A stretch of DNA of 64,000 nucleotides, from contig CAWAEF010000017.1 in NCBI GenBank assembly GCA_963780985.1, forward strand, positions 120,105-184,104, written 5' to 3'. The stretch is from an uncultured Alphaproteobacteria bacterium. Lineage in GTDB: Bacteria > Pseudomonadota > Alphaproteobacteria > JAGOMX01. The notes below the pieces were generated by a model that was not told the origin of the DNA, ran no database searches, and was given only the letters and a program-made list of their open reading frames with translations. This document shows, piece after piece, positions 50,944 through 56,324 of the stretch (position 1 is its first letter; each line of letters starts with the position of its first letter). A program made the translations under genes and the position numbers.

Positions 50944-51019
50944 TTAGAACAACGTGAGACAGTTCGCACCTATCAATATGATTAGAACAACGTGAGACAG
51001 TTCGCACCTATCAATATGA
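50944..51019 (+). repeat. Perfect 38-bp tandem duplication
   Basis: ttagaacaacgtgagacagttcgcacctatcaatatga occurs twice. Confidence 0.95.
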
Positions 51020-51125: not shown

Positions 51126-52013
51126 CTAGAAAGGGTTAAGTGACGCGACCCTTTGCTTCTTCGCGCGTTCTACTTCACTCTTAATTTGAGCTTCAAGTTT
51201 ATAACGGGCATATCGTGAAATCAGACCCATTTTTTCAATTGTTGTTAAAGCGTCTGCTCCATGAGGAGTAGTGGAATGGAGGCCCTTATAATATATCGCA
51301 TCTTTCCCACCAGAAAAACACTCTATAACAGCCCTATCTTTTTCATCAGCTTTTACGTATTGGCTATTAAGCTCATCTATATATAAATCAATCAAAATAG
51401 TCGGATCCACCTTAAACCAAATCTCTACTTCATTAATAGCGTCCTCTTTCAAGCGGCCAATAACAATTATGCTCTGCAAGGCATGGTAACTACCAAAGAA
51501 ACCGCCAAGCGTATCAACAGCGAAGGGCCTAAAATTCGGATTACCAGGCAAAGGCTCATCTTTCATTGAAGCTATACCGCTCACCAACCAAAACCTGCCT
51601 GTATCCCATTGATGCCATTGATTAATAAAAGTCCTGTTAGTCTCTCTTAGGAACCTATTTTTGGGTATTTCGCAAGAAAAATAATAATCTATTCCAACTG
51701 CCGCGGAGATACTGGCTAAAGTCACATAGGCAAATCTTTTTAAAACCGATCCATTATAACTCCTTAAAGGCACGGAAGAGTGCAATGTTCGCACGGGCAT
51801 ACGCATACAAGACCGTGCCATATTTCTGCTGGACAAGGAACTCAAAGCCCCTACGCGTCTTATGACATTTTCACCAAAATATTCGGACGCATCGGCGTCA
51901 GGCATTAATGCAGCACTAGTTACAACCACAAGTCCTGCCAGCATCATATTTCTGACTTTTCTGTTAGTTAGATTACATGTACCCATTAAGGTTTTCATTT
52001 TATTTTTGTACAT
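51126..52013 (-). CDS. Hypothetical secreted protein with a presequence-like segment and one TM
   Basis: Hydrophobic signal ending PDADAS, Arg/Ser-rich stretch, TM FAYVTLASISAAVGI. Confidence 0.65.
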   Translation of the reverse strand: MYKNKMKTLMGTCNLTNRKVRNMMLAGLVVVTSAALMPDADASEYFGENVIRRVGALSSLSSRNMARSCMRMPVRTLHSSVPLRSYNGSVLKRFAYVTLASISAAVGIDYYFSCEIPKNRFLRETNRTFINQWHQWDTGRFWLVSGIASMKDEPLPGNPNFRPFAVDTLGGFFGSYHALQSIIVIGRLKEDAINEVEIWFKVDPTILIDLYIDELNSQYVKADEKDRAVIECFSGGKDAIYYKGLHSTTPHGADALTTIEKMGLISRYARYKLEAQIKSEVERAKKQRVASLNPF

Positions 52014-52048
52014 AAGGGACTCCCAAGCTGTTTGGGTTAAAGATGAGC

Positions 52049-52093
52049 TAGCTTAACCAAGGGTATTCTGCCTGTCATCCGTAAAAAATACGG
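52049..52093 (-). promoter_or_regulatory. Sigma70-type promoter with the palindrome CCGTA-AAAAA-TACGG
   Basis: ATGACA-N17-TAAGCT immediately preceded by CCGTATTTTTTACGG. Confidence 0.5.
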
Positions 52094-52354
52094 AAAACTA
52101 TTATTTAATGACCTCAGATACATCGGACTTCATCTCATCTCCTTGCTTAAGAGACGATTGCGGACCACATTGCTTGACTAAACTTTTTCCCTACCGTCTT
52201 GATTTAATGACCAAAATGACATGTTTGAGGAACATTCTAAGAAGACCGCATCAAAACTTATCAGAAAGGATTAAATACTTGACTTAACTCATCCACGACC
52301 TTATACAAACTATAATGAACGTTAGGTATGGTTTAAATATAGAGAATATTAAAG

Positions 52355-53245
52355 ATGTTTGGTTACACAAAGAAGATTATAGCTGCAGTTAGCCTGCTGG
52401 CTTTATACCCAGTGCAACATGAGGCTCATTGTTCGGATGTAGACTTCGATGCAGGATTCAAGAACGTGAAAGGTCTTGCTATACACCATAAGTCTTTTGA
52501 GGAATCAAAAGAGCCCAAGATAGTAACGATGGGGGCTAATGGTAGAGATATTAAAACAAGATTACTAATCGAGGCCAGCAAGAAAACCCGTCCCAGCATC
52601 TTACGACTAGTCTGCAAGGACTTCAGAGATATCATAGATACGGGAACTCCAGATAATATAGGATTAAGGTATTCCACCATTGGTTCTGTATGGAAGCAGT
52701 GTATCCACGCGTGGTATGGCGTATTAGGCCATGAAGGCACTTGGCAAACAATCTTGAACGGCGAGTTGGTTTACAAGCCTAATCCAGATAGTGATGATGG
52801 GATAAAACGTTTGAAGATATCTGACCTTCCCAACCCTTTTGCAGGATCTTTTGACCTATCCGATTGTGGTGATGCTGGTAAGTACGTAAGCATCTCCATG
52901 GGTTTGCGAAAAGGAAAAAAAGACAGCAACAAAGACAAGAGCGAAATCTGGTTGATACCAAGGTTTTTAGCCATGCAGAAACTTGAAGGTAACGCGTCTT
53001 ATCTTAAAGAAACCATGGGCCAGTGGAGTGGCGAAACCCTTGTGGCGGTTATCTTTAACTGGTGGAGCAACCCAAATGACGCGTATGCTTATTGCTATTG
53101 GGCAGATTATGCGACGTTGCGGAAAACTAATCTGGGTGTGATTTATATGGACGAAAAAACGTCCCCGTGCGTCGGCGCGTGGGGCGGTGCGTGTGGACCT
53201 TCGGTGGCCAATGCAATTTCATGTTTCGTTTTTAAACTCGCCTAA
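52355..53245 (+). CDS. Secreted hypothetical protein with an F-box-like motif and a compositionally anomalous 3' end; candidate RT target
   Basis: Signal peptide (…EAHCS), SILRLVCKDFRDII; ends 3 bp from the RT stop. Confidence 0.75.
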   Translation: MFGYTKKIIAAVSLLALYPVQHEAHCSDVDFDAGFKNVKGLAIHHKSFEESKEPKIVTMGANGRDIKTRLLIEASKKTRPSILRLVCKDFRDIIDTGTPDNIGLRYSTIGSVWKQCIHAWYGVLGHEGTWQTILNGELVYKPNPDSDDGIKRLKISDLPNPFAGSFDLSDCGDAGKYVSISMGLRKGKKDSNKDKSEIWLIPRFLAMQKLEGNASYLKETMGQWSGETLVAVIFNWWSNPNDAYAYCYWADYATLRKTNLGVIYMDEKTSPCVGAWGGACGPSVANAISCFVFKLA

Positions 53246-53248
53246 GAA

Positions 53249-54421
53249 CTATTGACAATGACCCATGGCTTCTGCCATGGCGCCGGACCTCAAACATGAA
53301 AAGAGGCTAGGCAGAAGGGTTTGAACATATTTCTCAAACTCCTTTATTGTCGACATTCCTAAGGCAAGCCAGGACGCCCATTTTCGAACATATTGCCGCA
53401 AAGTCACAAGTGTACCAGGCTTTTGAGCAGCTGAAACCAACAATTGGGTCAAGATGCTCTGAACATCTACCTCTGTTGGAGCTGGCTCATTAACCATGTA
53501 CTCCGAAATGTCGCGCCCATGAGGATTGCTCTTGTGTTGGCGGGATACATTTCTTTTACCTTGCGACGGCTCATAAAGCGCGGCACCACGTTCGTGAAAA
53601 CGCCTGAGTGTTTCTTTAGAGGGTAAAATCTTTTGATCGTCCATATAATAACCAAGGAAATTAAAGCCATGGGCAATCTTACCAATATAGGTTTTAGAAG
53701 GATGTAGTTGCAGCTGTAAACCAGCCACAACCTTATGGGTGATCTTTACGACTTTTCGCAAAGCTGTTTTGCTTTTAGTGAGAATCACCCAATCATCCAT
53801 GTAGCGTGCATAAAAAACGCCTTTGATCTGCCCAATAGCCTTATCCAACGGAACTAAGGCGATAGCCCCAAGAATTGGAGAAAGAGGTGATCCCTTAGGT
53901 ATCCCTTTGTCATCGTAATCATAGAAGTTTCCTCCACGAGTCTCTGTGCGCTGCAATGCCTTACGCAATAGGGTTAATAAAACAAGATGATGAAGATGGG
54001 GCTCGATAATACCCATAAGGACATCAAATCGAATGGACTGGTAGTAGCTCTTAATATCGCTCCGCATTACATAATGATGTTCAGATAAGGCATCATGAGT
54101 ATGATTCACTGCCTTATTAAGGCCTCCACGATCTTTGATATGGTAACAAGATTGGGGTATATGATCATCCATTCTAGCGGCCAAAGCTTGAGCTATAAGC
54201 TTCAAGGCAATCATATCCTGAGACGACCAAAGGGAGATAGTTGCGTCATCAAACTCATAGCGCTCCAGCATGTCAAAGGTGTAGGACCCATCATTAAGCT
54301 GCTTTAGCAGACCATCTTTGATGCTATTCCACCGTATCCGAAGACGCCAAATGTCGGAGTTAGCAGAGTATTCTTTAAGCAGGCCGCAAACCCATTTAAA
54401 TGCTTGCTCAAGGGTATCCAT
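53249..54421 (-). CDS. Reverse transcriptase (RNA-directed DNA polymerase), unclassified group-II-like; start may lie up to 54484
   Basis: RSDIKSYYQSI, GIPKGSPLSPILG, YARYMDDWVIL, LHPSKTYIG, GFNFLGY; no HNH/endonuclease domain. Confidence 0.93.
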   Translation of the reverse strand: MDTLEQAFKWVCGLLKEYSANSDIWRLRIRWNSIKDGLLKQLNDGSYTFDMLERYEFDDATISLWSSQDMIALKLIAQALAARMDDHIPQSCYHIKDRGGLNKAVNHTHDALSEHHYVMRSDIKSYYQSIRFDVLMGIIEPHLHHLVLLTLLRKALQRTETRGGNFYDYDDKGIPKGSPLSPILGAIALVPLDKAIGQIKGVFYARYMDDWVILTKSKTALRKVVKITHKVVAGLQLQLHPSKTYIGKIAHGFNFLGYYMDDQKILPSKETLRRFHERGAALYEPSQGKRNVSRQHKSNPHGRDISEYMVNEPAPTEVDVQSILTQLLVSAAQKPGTLVTLRQYVRKWASWLALGMSTIKEFEKYVQTLLPSLFSCLRSGAMAEAMGHCQ

Positions 54422-54453
54422 TGAAAATAATAGGGGGGTCAATATCGTGGTTT

Positions 54454-54808
54454 TATACCCATTCAAGGGCTGTTTTCCCTGCATTACGTTTGATGCCTAA
54501 CAGGTGAATTTGTTCTTATCGTATCATGAATTGTTGTGATGGGCATTGGTATTTTTCAACAGTGCCTAAAACAGGTGGTTCTAGAACAACCAAAATCGGT
54601 GACATCAAGACCACAGTGGGGTTTGAGGATTGGCCTGTAACAAACGTCCCAGAACTAGTCCCAATTGAGTTTGTTCCTAAACGCATCGTCTTTTGGGTTT
54701 TTGGGATGCTACTTAGACAAAAAGACAGCAGGCTTAACATTTTTCCTACGAAACAGACGGTTGTTTAAATCTTTTTTACAGAAAACAGCCGACTGTTTCA
54801 AGGGTATA
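54454..54808 (-). ncRNA. Putative structured RT-associated non-coding RNA
   Basis: Long-range pairing TATACCC/GGGTATA and GGCTGTTTTC/GAAAACAGCC brackets the region; internal hairpins and a direct repeat; no convincing ORF. Confidence 0.5.
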
Positions 54809-54848
54809 GGGCTGCGATAGCTGTGCGTTCGAAACGAAGATTCAGGCC

Positions 54849-56324
54849 CTAGCCCTTATCCAACATTTCCTTCAGCACATCATTCAGCAGCTTCGGATTC
54901 GCTTTGCCTTGCATGGCTTTCATGGCTTGGCCTACGAAGAATCCGAATAGTTTATCTTTGCCGCTGCGGTATTCTGCTACCTTATCGGCGTTATCCTTGA
55001 GGATCTGTTCGATGCAGGCGCGGATGGATGAATCGTCGCTGACTTGTTCGAGGCCTTTTTCTTTGACGATGTCGGCGGCTACTTTGCCGGACTCCCACAT
55101 TTCCAGGAACACATCCTTGGCTATACGTCCAGAAATAGTGCCATCGACGATCAGGTCCACCATTTCGGCCATGTGTTCAGGGGTCACTTTGGACTCTGTG
55201 ATGGTCAGGCTGTCTCGGTTCATGGCGCCAAACAGCTCGCTGGTAATCCAGTTGGCTAGCAGCTTTGGACTCTTATCATCCTTTTGTTTGGTCGCCGCAA
55301 GGGCAGACTCGTAATAGTCCGCAAAGTCACCATCAGATACAAGAACGGCCGCATCGTAAGGGCTTAGGCCCAGAGTCTCGATAAACCGACGCTTTTTAGC
55401 ATCGGGAAGCTCCGGCAGGCTCTGGCGAACGCGCTCCACGAGTTCCTCGGTCAATACCAGTGGTGGCAGATCGGGATCGGGGAAATAGCGATAGTCATGA
55501 GCCTCTTCTTTCGACCGCATACTGCGGGTTTCGCCGCGTACAGGATCAAACAAACGTGTCTCCTGGTCGACGGTTCCACCGTCCTCTAGGATCTCCATCT
55601 GGCGTTGAACTTCGTAGTCAACGGCCTGACCCATAAAGCGGATTGAGTTCACATTCTTGATCTCCGCACGGGTACCCAATTCAGCCCCAGGACGGCGCAA
55701 GGATACGTTCACATCGGCGCGCATACTCCCCTGCTCCATGTTGCCGTCGCAAGTGCCTAAGTAACGCACCAGCGAACGCAAGCTTTTGACAAATGCCATG
55801 GCCTCTTCTCGGCTGGACATGTCAGGCATGGTGACGATCTCCATCAACGCCACACCTGAACGGTTCAGGTCGATAAAGGTCTTGTTGGGATGCTGGTCAT
55901 GTATACTCTTACCGGCGTCCTGTTCCAGGTGGATACGCTCAATGCGGATGGTCTTACTGGTGCCATCAGCCAAGTCAATGTCCAAATGCCCCTCGCCAAC
56001 GATGGGGTGCTTATACTGGGAAATCTGGTATCCCGCGGGCAGATCCGGATAGAAATAGTTCTTCCGATCAAAAACCGAATGCTTGTTAATCTTGGCATGT
56101 AGCCCCAAACCTGTCTTGATGGCTTGACTCACGCAGTAGTCATTTATCACCGGCAACGTGCCTGGAAAACCCGCATCTACCAAGGATACTTGGCTATTGG
56201 GGTCTGCACCGAATTCAGTGGATGCGCCGGAAAATAACTTGGAATTAGAAGTAACCTGAGCATGGACTTCAAGACCGATAACTACTTCCCAAGGGCCTGT
56301 GCGGCCTTCTACATATGACGTCAT
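54849..56324 (-). CDS. gatB: Asp-tRNA(Asn)/Glu-tRNA(Gln) amidotransferase subunit B
   Basis: [47 protein letters not shown]. Confidence 0.98.

Follow-up and report, generated by a model that had tools for sequence, protein, structure and literature searches.

The RT-linked hypervariable locus described here resembles several known systems. In DGRs of the Bordetella phage BPP-1 type, as here, a reverse transcriptase (RT) is linked to a secreted- or surface-protein gene whose 3' end carries a hypervariable stretch with sharp borders; the variable stretch is A-poor and is followed by conserved sequence and hairpins, and one RT apparently serves several targets. Terminal transferase (TdT) adds untemplated random nucleotides during N-region addition in V(D)J joining, and AbiK and Abi-P2 are also capable of untemplated synthesis, the AbiK products being protein-primed and, to our knowledge, not integrated. 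TdT and AbiK share with our locus random, composition-biased insertions at a defined coding junction, with variation in length and frame. Non-LTR retrotransposons leave copies with a shared 3' end, varied 5' truncation and a structured 3' RNA, together with extra untemplated-looking nucleotides at one boundary, and each of these features has a counterpart here. DRT2, DRT9 and DRT10 (UG17) are Class 2 UG/Abi RT-ncRNA systems whose products are extrachromosomal cDNAs in phage defence, with the ncRNA upstream; the RT class is the same as at our locus, as is the presence of an RT-associated structured RNA. Characterized Class 2 UG RTs are described in PMC12632851 as producing repetitive or low-complexity cDNA from the associated ncRNA. 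The UG4 class, to which our RT belongs, is placed in Class 2 UG/Abi by PMC9226505. Among bacterial RTs it counts as an original 'unknown group', with no function assigned to it in PMC9226505 and PMC2602772. Simon & Zimmerly (2008, PMC2602772) single it out: apart from the group II introns, no other group was a possible case of retromobility. The literature searched contains no description of a UG4-linked cassette.

In the window, by which we mean the whole 64,000-nt stretch of DNA analysed here, a 50-nt tract at 53160-53209, CGTCCCCGTGCGTCGGCGCGTGGGGCGGTGCGTGTGGACCTTCGGTGGCC, consists of 39 G/C, 10 T and a single A, and is bordered by GAAAAAA on its 5' side and by AATGCAATTTCATGTTTCG on its 3' side. 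A sequence-only reading had drawn attention to this tract, its borders and its position near the end of a gene that adjoins an RT, and all of these points are confirmed by the window sequence and by the classification of the RT. The gene, hereafter TG, has a translation that ends ..KTSPCVGAWGGACGPSVANAISCFVFKLA, with the tract finishing 36 nt upstream of the stop codon, and TG and the RT gene are convergent, tail to tail (Table 1). In a scan of the whole 1,997,884-bp assembly (GC 47%, A 26.6%), two 50-nt tracts reached 39 G/C or more while containing no more than one A (or T), the second being a repetitive, GGCTGGGG-type sequence on contig C3; when the thresholds were relaxed to at most two A or T and at least 35 G/C the number rose to 36.

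Table 1. Coordinates of the features of the locus within the window.
Feature	Coordinates	Strand	Basis and remarks
Target gene TG, 296 aa	52355..53245	+	ORF and translation; signal-peptide-like N-terminus
Conserved upstream flank GACGAAAAAACG	53150..53161	+	A-run ends directly 5' of cassette
Hypervariable G-rich, A-poor cassette	53162-53216	+	55 nt in window; limits from comparison with other copies
Conserved anchor TTTCATGTTTCGTTTTTAAACTCGCCTAAGAA	53217..53248	.	Alignment conservation; gives last residues of TG and stop in any frame
Reverse transcriptase, 411 aa, UG4 class (Class 2 UG/Abi)	53249..54484	-	Pfam, PADLOC, YMDD
Three-hairpin RNA element, 4-bp closing stem (three-way junction)	53254..53351	-	RT sense; covariation

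The RT is a clear member of its class. Its best PADLOC match is RT_UG4 (PDLC03779), at 290 bits and an E value of 4.4e-87, extending over positions 3-301 of the 307-position profile; a generic RT (2e-37) and UG17 (1.6e-36) follow. The catalytic YxDD motif is intact (ARYMDDWVIL in translation), and 157 proteins in a metagenome protein collection are related to the enzyme at E<=1e-20. Its sole Pfam match is RVT_1 (1.2e-20, residues 93-280), with no endonuclease domain, and none of the eight neighbouring ORFs scanned gave an Avd-like Pfam match. TG matches no family in Pfam, NCBIfam or PADLOC, and its AlphaFold model (mean pLDDT 62) has no match in the PDB at E<=0.001 by Foldseek. No fimbrial domain was found in TG, unlike the frequent UG4 neighbourhood, in which fimbrial genes occur in 66% of cases (PMC8934634, Table 4), a common association rather than a strict criterion. 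TG has seven homologs, and its family is multi-copy: the three genomes of the genus contain 8, 6 and 7 matches, as against none in three genomes from other genera of the family. A contig search with the TG alignment recovered no relative, a pattern scan returned only a congener already in the set, and the additions from an order-level search all came from genomes within the same genus. Among the genomes searched, the TG family is confined to this genus.

The tract is the core of the longer cassette, near the 3' end of TG, that emerges when related copies are compared. In the 12 copies compiled the flanks are conserved while the cassettes range from 41 to 99 nt and are unalignable, also between copies with an overall flank identity of 87-92%. 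Conserved flanks around unrelated cassettes are seen across nine loci, and also at L041, L057 and L026. The copies on C17 and C31 of the same genome, for example, are 87% identical over 770 nt, with 21 identical nucleotides 5' of the cassette and 29 of 30 identical on its 3' side, and have unrelated cassettes. Pairwise cassette identity is 0.55-0.62, compared with 0.49-0.56 for shuffled partners (sd 0.03-0.05), although the four-fold sites in the flanking half of TG differ at only 1/43 to 7/37 positions (2-19%); in the RT 17 of 156 four-fold sites differ. Because the cassettes approach shuffle-level identity while the adjacent four-fold sites have changed so little, the site is hypervariable and the differences do not reflect drift. 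The starts of the L014 and L013 cassettes look similar by eye. No repeat unit or short repeated template was detected in the 12 cassettes, as shared k-mers did not clearly exceed those in mononucleotide shuffles (158/500 at k=5, 24/500 at k=6 and 414/500 at k=7). The sequence-only reading had held that conserved flanks around A-poor, unalignable or length-variable interiors would favour its interpretation, and an ordinarily conserved tract would have counted against it; the flanks are indeed conserved and the interiors are A-poor, length-variable and unalignable across copies. Adenine depletion itself stands only in part. In the pool of nine related cassettes (481 nt) A is reduced to 8%, but G reaches 49%, with C and T at 21% each, and the sequence is thus G-enriched rather than simply A-depleted.

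Both borders of the cassette are maintained. The window shares its upstream flank without any difference with the C31 paralog and with L032, whereas L031 carries one change and L012 a variant form; a run of A5-A7 immediately 5' of the cassette also occurs in L017, L013, L026 and L057. A 17-nt match between the upstream flank (53143-53159) and the RT YYMDDQK codons (53632-53648) is probably due to chance and is absent from L041; by our own estimate several 17-nt matches are expected in 11 kb. On the other side the anchor, which in the RT sense is the segment downstream of the RT stop, is read in three frames, yielding ISCFVFKLA in the window, NFM[FL]RF in L002, L031 and L032, and FHVSFLNPPRDY in L012, each followed by a stop codon. 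Cassette lengths divided by three leave remainders of 0, 1 and 2, and the variation is therefore blind to frame.

Overlapping the last ~34 codons of the RT is an RNA element whose structure is conserved. RNAalifold, applied to 13 copies, returned 25 pairs with compensatory changes at 12 of them; 90.4% of cells were paired, compared with 28-54% when the partners were slid, and on four of five measures none of 500 shuffles reached the observed value. The presence of 32 G-U cells against 8 A-C cells favours the RT-sense strand. The structure is retained in RT-less, 5'-truncated remnants beside paralogous TG genes, and an nhmmer search of the genome located seven copies at E<1e-3, six of which are preceded by a G-rich stretch. 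The locus thus has the feature expected of a Class 2 UG RT with its ncRNA, a conserved structured RNA beside the RT, here at the 3' end of the RT gene. Comparison with Rfam identified no family, the only match being to a snoRNA at chance level (E 0.9), and covariance model R1 detected no copies in the Legionella, Salmonella, Burkholderia, Serratia, Escherichia and Aeromonas plasmid loci, or in L039 and L043-L045. No motif that could act as a template for the cassette was found.

The association with the RT is constant. Nine of the 12 TG loci queried by tblastn contain an RT or a C-terminal RT remnant that is convergent with, and abuts, TG, and every cassette examined adjoins either an RT or an RT 3' remnant with the conserved RNA structure, which is consistent with the link to the RT that had been proposed from the tract. 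The remnants at paralogs are 5'-truncated at differing points, corresponding to window coordinates 53352, 53384, 53424 and 53488. Cassettes at intact or contig-cut RTs contain 4.9% A and 53% G, and those at remnants 12% A and 45% G, a trend that comes from only five and six related loci, respectively. On contig C6 an RT remnant lies behind an unrelated small Cys-rich gene and is not accompanied by G-rich filler.

A comparable arrangement occurs on a complete Legionella longbeachae plasmid encoding a UG4 RT. At the matching site of the convergent gene, which is annotated as SidC, there is an extreme G-rich tract, GGAGCGGGGGGGGGGCGGCGGGGGCGGGGTGTGGGGGCGCCGCGGGCGG, that shifts the frame of the gene's tail. 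Two RT-less sister plasmids share the same flanks, one with a normal and the other with a partly G-enriched version, and the cassette is located ~100 nt inside the sequence shared with the RT-less plasmids rather than at the junction. In the pair NSW150/B41211 the region can be aligned and displays 19 substitutions in two patches around an unchanged core; 10 of the 19 are away from A, 11 are towards G and five are T>G. The same region of a Legionella lytica homolog is a variable linker of ordinary composition. In four fimbrial operons with UG4 the RT is co-directional and the pattern is not followed, and in a Salmonella plasmid and genome G138 the UG4 genes are convergent with overlapping surface-protein genes that contain no G-rich tract.

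The finding of an A-poor hypervariable cassette beside an RT suggests a new bacterial way to rewrite the tail of a protein. The explanation that we favour, tentatively and at just short of an even chance, is that the cassette is the current state of a hypervariable site in a retroelement-like module, and is rewritten by the RT with G-biased DNA. The module would have three parts: the UG4-class RT, the structured RNA that the RT transcript forms at its 3' end, and a defined site in the 3'-terminal part of the convergent TG. Guided by the RNA element, the RT would repeatedly rewrite the 40-60 nt that separate the A-run flank (GACGAAAAAACG) from the anchor (TTTCATGTTTCG...). The new DNA would be G-rich, A-poor and otherwise essentially random, made either without a template or by slippage copying. 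Most plausibly, the A-run flank would prime synthesis on the TG-sense strand, with resolution within the conserved anchor and RNA-element region. A single RT may act in cis and also in trans, on paralogous TG genes that retain only the RNA-element part. As the new DNA would be almost without A it would create no stop codons, and since the anchor supplies a stop in all three frames, the protein should stay intact after every rewrite, gaining a new C-terminal linker and a tail of one of three kinds. The comparisons establish the hypervariation, its composition and indifference to frame, the conservation of the RNA structure and the regular presence of the RT or its remnant; the RT as maker of the DNA, the place of priming and any cellular benefit are inferred. 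Several observations fit less comfortably with RT-dependent rewriting. The RT has RVT_1 but no endonuclease domain; the RNA element has the polarity of the RT, and searches recovered no cassette template; other UG4 loci depart from the pattern (the four co-directional fimbrial operons, the Salmonella plasmid and G138); the partly G-enriched Legionella allele is on a plasmid that lacks the RT; and the trend between intact RTs and remnants derives from five versus six related loci; and the covariance model detected no copy of the RNA element in the distant UG4 loci.

The sequence-only reading had explained the tract by iterative A-to-N mutagenesis, each product templating the next round, or by RT-mediated insertion of variable sequence. 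Hypervariation and the link to the RT support its interpretation in part; adenine-specific mutagenesis of the DGR type is not supported, and the insertion of variable sequence accounts better for the data. Unlike DGRs, the locus has no template repeat and no Avd gene, and its RT is UG4; the cassettes change in length and frame, by amounts that are not multiples of three, and are random-like with G as the sink rather than products of A-only substitution; the RT is convergent with its target, to which the conserved RNA is antisense. A classical DGR is rejected, as neither blastn, a repeat search nor an A-tolerant scan of the 74%-complete assembly revealed a template repeat; blastn returned only paralogous loci, and the best non-self placement in the A-tolerant scan had 19 non-A mismatches in 90 nt. 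The main idea of the sequence-only reading would do without a separate template: a cassette-containing RNA would itself be copied by the RT, which makes base-selective errors, and the resulting cDNA would take the place of the old cassette, so that round after round the composition moves away from A and towards G until the copies become unalignable. Such self-templated mutagenic retrohoming, which we consider unlikely, would explain why the cassettes are poor in A and rich in G, the resemblance between the starts of L014 and L013, and the alignable NSW150/B41211 alleles, in which changes are mainly from A and towards G. The order of variable region, conserved anchor and hairpins, which is that of DGR targets, is also similar here. 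Cassette lengths, however, differ by classes of 1-2 nt and by up to tens of nucleotides, and substitution alone is thus insufficient to account for the differences between cassettes. In addition, cassettes are already unrelated at a four-fold difference of 2.3%, T>G changes (5/19) are not adenine mutagenesis, the structured RNA is antisense to TG, and the RT lies outside the DGR clade. An iterative mutagenic component may nevertheless contribute, in view of the direction of the NSW150/B41211 substitutions.

A further possibility, which we again judge improbable, is that the UG4 RT and its 3' RNA form a LINE-like element that inserts at TG-type 3' ends by target-primed reverse transcription, and that the cassette is untemplated junction filler with no diversifying function. 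The differing 5' truncation points of the RT copies at paralogs would be expected of such an element, as would two units whose four-fold sites are only 2.3% apart but whose downstream contexts differ, the remnant behind the Cys-rich gene on C6 and the altered frame of the Legionella gene's tail; the singling out of UG4 in PMC2602772 as possibly retromobile points the same way. In contrast with non-LTR retrotransposons, the RT lacks an endonuclease domain, inspection of some remnant ends revealed no target-site duplications, truncated copies keep their RNA structure under selection and the copies are associated with the 3' ends of one gene family. The compensatory changes in the remnants argue that these are functional and not dead copies. 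The Legionella cassette, moreover, is off the junction, within sequence shared with RT-less plasmids, and the C6 remnant has no G-rich filler. If retrotransposition did prove to be correct, a bacterial LINE-like element with 5'-truncated copies would itself be new.

It is similarly doubtful that the cassette arose independently of the RT, as an unconstrained, slippage-prone G-rich linker or as a C-rich part of the RT transcript serving in Rho utilisation or termination, between two constrained blocks, with gene conversion keeping the flanks alike and the position of the RT being incidental. Rho-utilisation sites are C-rich, G-poor and unstructured, as is the cassette in the RT sense; conversion could exchange flanks among paralogs of the same genome, and the linker in the L. 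lytica homolog varies without unusual composition. On the minus strand, the cassette of the window has the potential for a hairpin with a T6 run after it. Against this, a scan of 52000-55000 yielded no terminator-like sites, and 11 cassettes folded no better than their shuffled versions, with a mean z of -0.12 for one strand and -0.07 for the other, leading us to reject an intrinsic terminator or other stable hairpin. There is no repeat unit on which slippage could act, cassettes are randomized where four-fold sites are 2-19% apart, also between contigs of different samples, the anchor is conserved despite being read in three frames, and the extreme G-rich Legionella allele coincides with the RT. 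The chance that the cassette is an assembly chimera or sequencing artefact is negligible: the assembly is fragmented (31 contigs, 74% completeness), but the architecture recurs in the genus (three genomes), among independent metagenome contigs and on the complete Legionella plasmid, and a contig from another run matches 53049-53199 exactly. Part of the stretch was recovered, as Logan contigs, from 20 of the 21 sequencing runs listed, none of them an RNA run, with at most 0.44 of its words present; over the cassette, where runs X1-X4 provide short contigs only, X1 is identical and X3 represents a 9%-diverged relative, with no others.

The locus also differs from DRT2, DRT9 and DRT10, in that the RT transcript itself provides the RNA, with its 3' end, low-complexity DNA resides inside chromosomal coding sequence and no repeat unit is detectable; UG4, according to PMC9226505, shows no defence-island enrichment. 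TdT belongs to another enzyme family, and untemplated synthesis at our locus is putative. With somewhat less assurance than for the locus itself, we consider it possible that UG4 RTs are template-repeat-free diversity generators, which, directed by a structured RNA in the 3'-terminal part of their own transcripts, would write random, G-rich, stop-free DNA into the 3' ends of secreted- or surface-protein genes. Each lineage would in this way acquire its own C-terminal linker, together with one of the three tails. On such a reading the RT would resemble a bacterial terminal transferase or telomerase acting on a gene, and one RT would serve several paralogous targets, each marked by the RNA element it has retained. 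If this is true, it would constitute a second form of RT-driven protein diversification beside DGRs, and one that is mechanistically different, as it would need no template repeat, would vary length and frame, and would avoid stop codons by avoiding adenine. Such an enzyme might serve as a compact tool for targeted random-sequence insertion. The activities of Class 2 UG RTs would be extended from extrachromosomal defence cDNAs to the rewriting of the genome in place, and the occurrence of UG4 genes beside those for fimbriae, adhesins and secreted effectors would be explained.

The G-rich tract that the sequence-only reading had picked out as adenine-depleted has the composition then given (39 G/C, 10 T and 1 A in 50 nt), and the gene around it, the target gene (TG), reads ..KTSPCVGAWGGACGPSVANAISCFVFKLA from the tract to the stop codon. 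A scan of the whole assembly (1,997,884 bp; 47% GC, 26.6% A) returned two tracts within strict limits (no more than 1 A or T, and 39 or more G/C, per 50 nt), this one and a GGCTGGGG-type repeat, and 36 under looser limits. Comparison between paralogs and orthologs, which the same reading had proposed, had the outcome it had named as support: flanks were conserved and interiors were unalignable and length-variable in both seven homologous proteins and nine aligned loci (from the own genome, two congeners and two metagenome contigs). The proteins align well as far as ..IYMDEKT, continue into an interior rich in G, R, A, V, W, C and S, and end in ISCFVFKL[AT] or NFM[FL]RF. In the DNA, a conserved GGACGAAAAAACG or other A-run leads into the variable cassette, which is followed by conserved TTTCATGTTTCGTTTTTAAAC and the stop codon of a convergent reverse transcriptase (RT). 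The layout recurs in further copies (loci L041, L057, L026 and L030, and contigs C4 and C3 of the own genome); the cassette of locus L034 is weakly G-rich. The copy on contig C31 is 87% identical to the window over 770 nt, sharing all 21 nt upstream of the cassette and 29/30 nt downstream, and the 51-53 nt in between are unrelated.

Features in and around the target gene and the reverse transcriptase (window coordinates)
Feature	Position	Strand	Remarks
Tandem duplication	50944-51019		perfect; 38-nt unit (TTAGAACAACGTGAGACAGTTCGCACCTATCAATATGA x2), between a GNAT gene and the 295-aa ORF
295-aa ORF	51126-52013	-	
TG	52355-53245	+	296 aa; signal-peptide-like start
TG N-terminal part	52355-52750		~125 residues
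TG identity jump	52724-52757		C17-type vs C31-type genes
17-nt inverted match	53143-53159 and 53632-53648		15/17
G-rich tract core	53160-53209		inside TG ORF; ends 36 nt before stop
Cassette	53162-53216		hypervariable
Anchor	53217-53248		conserved DNA after cassette
RT	53249-54484	-	411 aa; RVT_1 at 1.2e-20; YMDD present
RNA element	53254-53351	-	three hairpins
Hairpin in RNA element	53254-53290		CCATGGCAGAAGCCATGG; encodes RT C-terminal ..GAMAEAMGHCQ and stop

The cassette is sharply bounded, frame-blind, G-biased, random-like and hypervariable. Its length ranges from 41 to 99 nt, with remainders of 0, 1 and 2 after division by 3, and the anchor is translated in all three frames, as ISCFVFKLA, NFMFRF or FHVSFLNPPRDY, each before a stop; thus the conservation of the anchor is not for protein. 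Read off its sequence, the anchor stops translation whichever frame arrives. All three stop codons contain A, and a nearly A-free insert therefore cannot break the frame. Pooled cassettes (481 nt) contain 49.3% G, 21.2% C, 21.2% T and 8.3% A, with GCG and GTG the most frequent triplets and a mild excess of G-pyrimidine alternation. K-mers common to 12 cassettes were not clearly above mononucleotide shuffles, so that neither a set repeat unit nor a shared template is visible, and on neither strand do cassettes fold more stably than their shuffles (mean z -0.12 and -0.07); a terminator scan of window 52000-55000 found no site. Over the 387 nt of TG that precede the cassette, four-fold sites differ by between 1/43 (L002 vs L031) and 7/37, and those of the RT by 17/156 (L011 vs L032), while global identity between cassettes is 0.55-0.62 against 0.49-0.56 for a shuffled partner (sd 0.03-0.05), the compared copies being kin whose counts are not independent. 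The cassette was thus randomised while neutral sites changed by 2-19%, which rules out a simple lack of constraint.

The RT is best classed as RT_UG4 (4.4e-87 over nearly the whole profile; next classes near 1e-37), its NCBIfam matches all falling under their cut-offs, and its stop codon lies 3 nt from that of TG. By tblastn the RT, or merely its last 28-72 residues, is convergent with and abuts TG in 9/12 loci; L033, L015 and L019 gave no tblastn match, and L019 has weak matches at the nucleotide level. The own genome holds one full RT and fragments on contigs C31, C15 and C6; on C31, two loci account for three matches that overlap or lie close together. On the TG strand, a GGGGG..CCCCC hairpin with a T-run follows each truncated RT remnant (L002 ~2680-2710, L031 ~4130-4160, own-genome C31:155510-155540) and looks like a terminator of the TG transcript. 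The 17-nt inverted match pairs the upstream flank of the cassette (codons IYMDEK) with RT codons YYMDDQK on the opposite strand; it was not seen in L041 and is probably due to chance.

Adjoining the cassette is a conserved RNA structure in the RT sense. When the 150 nt after the cassette were aligned in 13 copies, the consensus comprised three hairpins and a 4-bp closing stem, with compensatory changes in 12/25 pairs and 90.4% paired cells vs 28-54% with slid partners. Shuffles reached the observed value in 0/500 cases on four of five measures and 8/500 on the fifth, a test whose significance is overstated by the relatedness of the copies, so that the comparison with slid partners is the fairer one. 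The counts of 32 G-U vs 8 A-C cells speak for the RT-sense strand. The element overlaps the final ~34 codons of the RT and also persists in RT-less remnants, where no coding function can account for it; at the hairpin listed in the table RNA structure seems to dictate the C-terminal RT protein sequence. At C6:27860-28310 an RT 3' remnant lies behind an unrelated gene for a small Cys-rich secreted protein; no G-rich cassette is present there, and both hairpins are kept through compensatory changes. No Rfam family matched the element; nhmmer found seven copies in the own genome at E<1e-3, and a covariance model added two further strong copies, both from related loci, with none among distant UG4 loci.

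A role of the RT in making the cassette is suggested by circumstantial evidence. The RNA element would recruit the RT, which would synthesise new cassette DNA, most simply as an extension of the A-run flank on the TG-sense strand; further synthesis would carry the cDNA into the anchor, RNA element and RT region, which would account for where the cassette lies and for RT copies being 5'-truncated to varying extents, their homology ending at window 53352, 53384, 53424 or 53488. The RT may act in trans on targets that still carry the RNA element. According to PMC12632851, characterised Class 2 UG RTs use their own ncRNAs to make cDNA of repetitive or homopolymeric sequence. It could be argued instead that the cassette is filler left at the junction by a mobile LINE-like element, and PMC2602772 names UG4 as the only possible candidate for retromobility other than group II introns. 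Iterative self-templated mutagenesis, which the sequence-only reading had entertained, is a further rival; the assembly (74% complete) holds no template repeat for the cassette. An RT-independent origin is the third rival. The cassette is constantly associated with a UG4 RT or the 3' remnant of one, and there is a weak trend towards purer cassettes next to intact or contig-cut RTs (A 4.9%, G 53%; 5 loci) than next to remnants (A 12%, G 45%; 6 loci).

TG itself matched no family in Pfam, NCBIfam or PADLOC. Its AlphaFold model (mean pLDDT 62) is confident chiefly at residues ~130-270 and low at 272-279, within the cassette-encoded part (~270-287), and resembled no PDB fold at E<=0.001. The family is multi-copy in each of the three genomes from the genus (8, 6 and 7 matches) and was not found in three genomes from other genera of the same family. 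The N-terminal part of TG is common to further genes with different C-terminal parts (own-genome contigs C3, C8 and C31), and between C17-type (window contig) and C31-type genes identity jumps from ~30% to ~90%. In one homolog, P0009, an F-box-like Pfam domain is precomputed, a hint that the family comprises host-interacting effectors and the bacterium is of an intracellular type.

Currently UG4 is placed, in PMC9226505, among the Class 2 UG/Abi RTs, as mostly plasmid-borne, associated with fimbrial protein clusters and without defence enrichment; Table 4 of PMC8934634 gives fimbrial-domain co-occurrence as 66%. Full-text searches of the literature yielded no description of a UG4-linked hypervariable cassette. 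UG4 matches occur in 7/401 sampled genomes of the class, and UG4-like RTs of about 30% identity in 58 plasmid records; in genome G194, from another family, the RT accompanies a TG homolog. In L. longbeachae, the RT of plasmid NZ_CP020895.2 converges on a gene annotated as SidC, whose 3' end holds an extreme G-rich, A-poor tract. Two sister Legionella plasmids lack the RT, and between the same flanks NSW150 has ordinary sequence and B41211 is partly G-enriched; over about 83 nt, B41211 shows 19 substitutions relative to NSW150 (six A>G, five T>G and three A>C among them) and an insertion of 3 nt; the L. lytica homolog is of ordinary composition there, and the correlation of RT with tract spans three plasmids. 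The Salmonella enterica plasmid NZ_CP019190.1 (1180-1785, 4944-6062) carries two UG4 RT copies, one 5'-truncated, each in tail-to-tail overlap with the end of a gene for an intimin-like inverse autotransporter; starting at the adhesin stop codon, the RT parts share ~98% identity, the adhesin C-terminal domains are unalignable, and a G-rich tract is absent from both overlaps. It is likewise absent from locus L039 (G138:C8, in another genome), where a PEP-CTERM protein gene and a UG4 RT overlap at the 3' end of the former and a tandem second copy, part N-masked, joins a PEP-CTERM gene end to an RT C-terminal remnant. The RT is co-directional in four fimbrial operons; no fimbrial gene is annotated near the E. 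marmotae UG4 locus. The G-rich cassette is thus established for this alphaproteobacterial genus and one Legionella plasmid, not for UG4 as a whole, and the recurring UG4 theme is an RT that abuts the 3' end of a secreted- or surface-protein gene.
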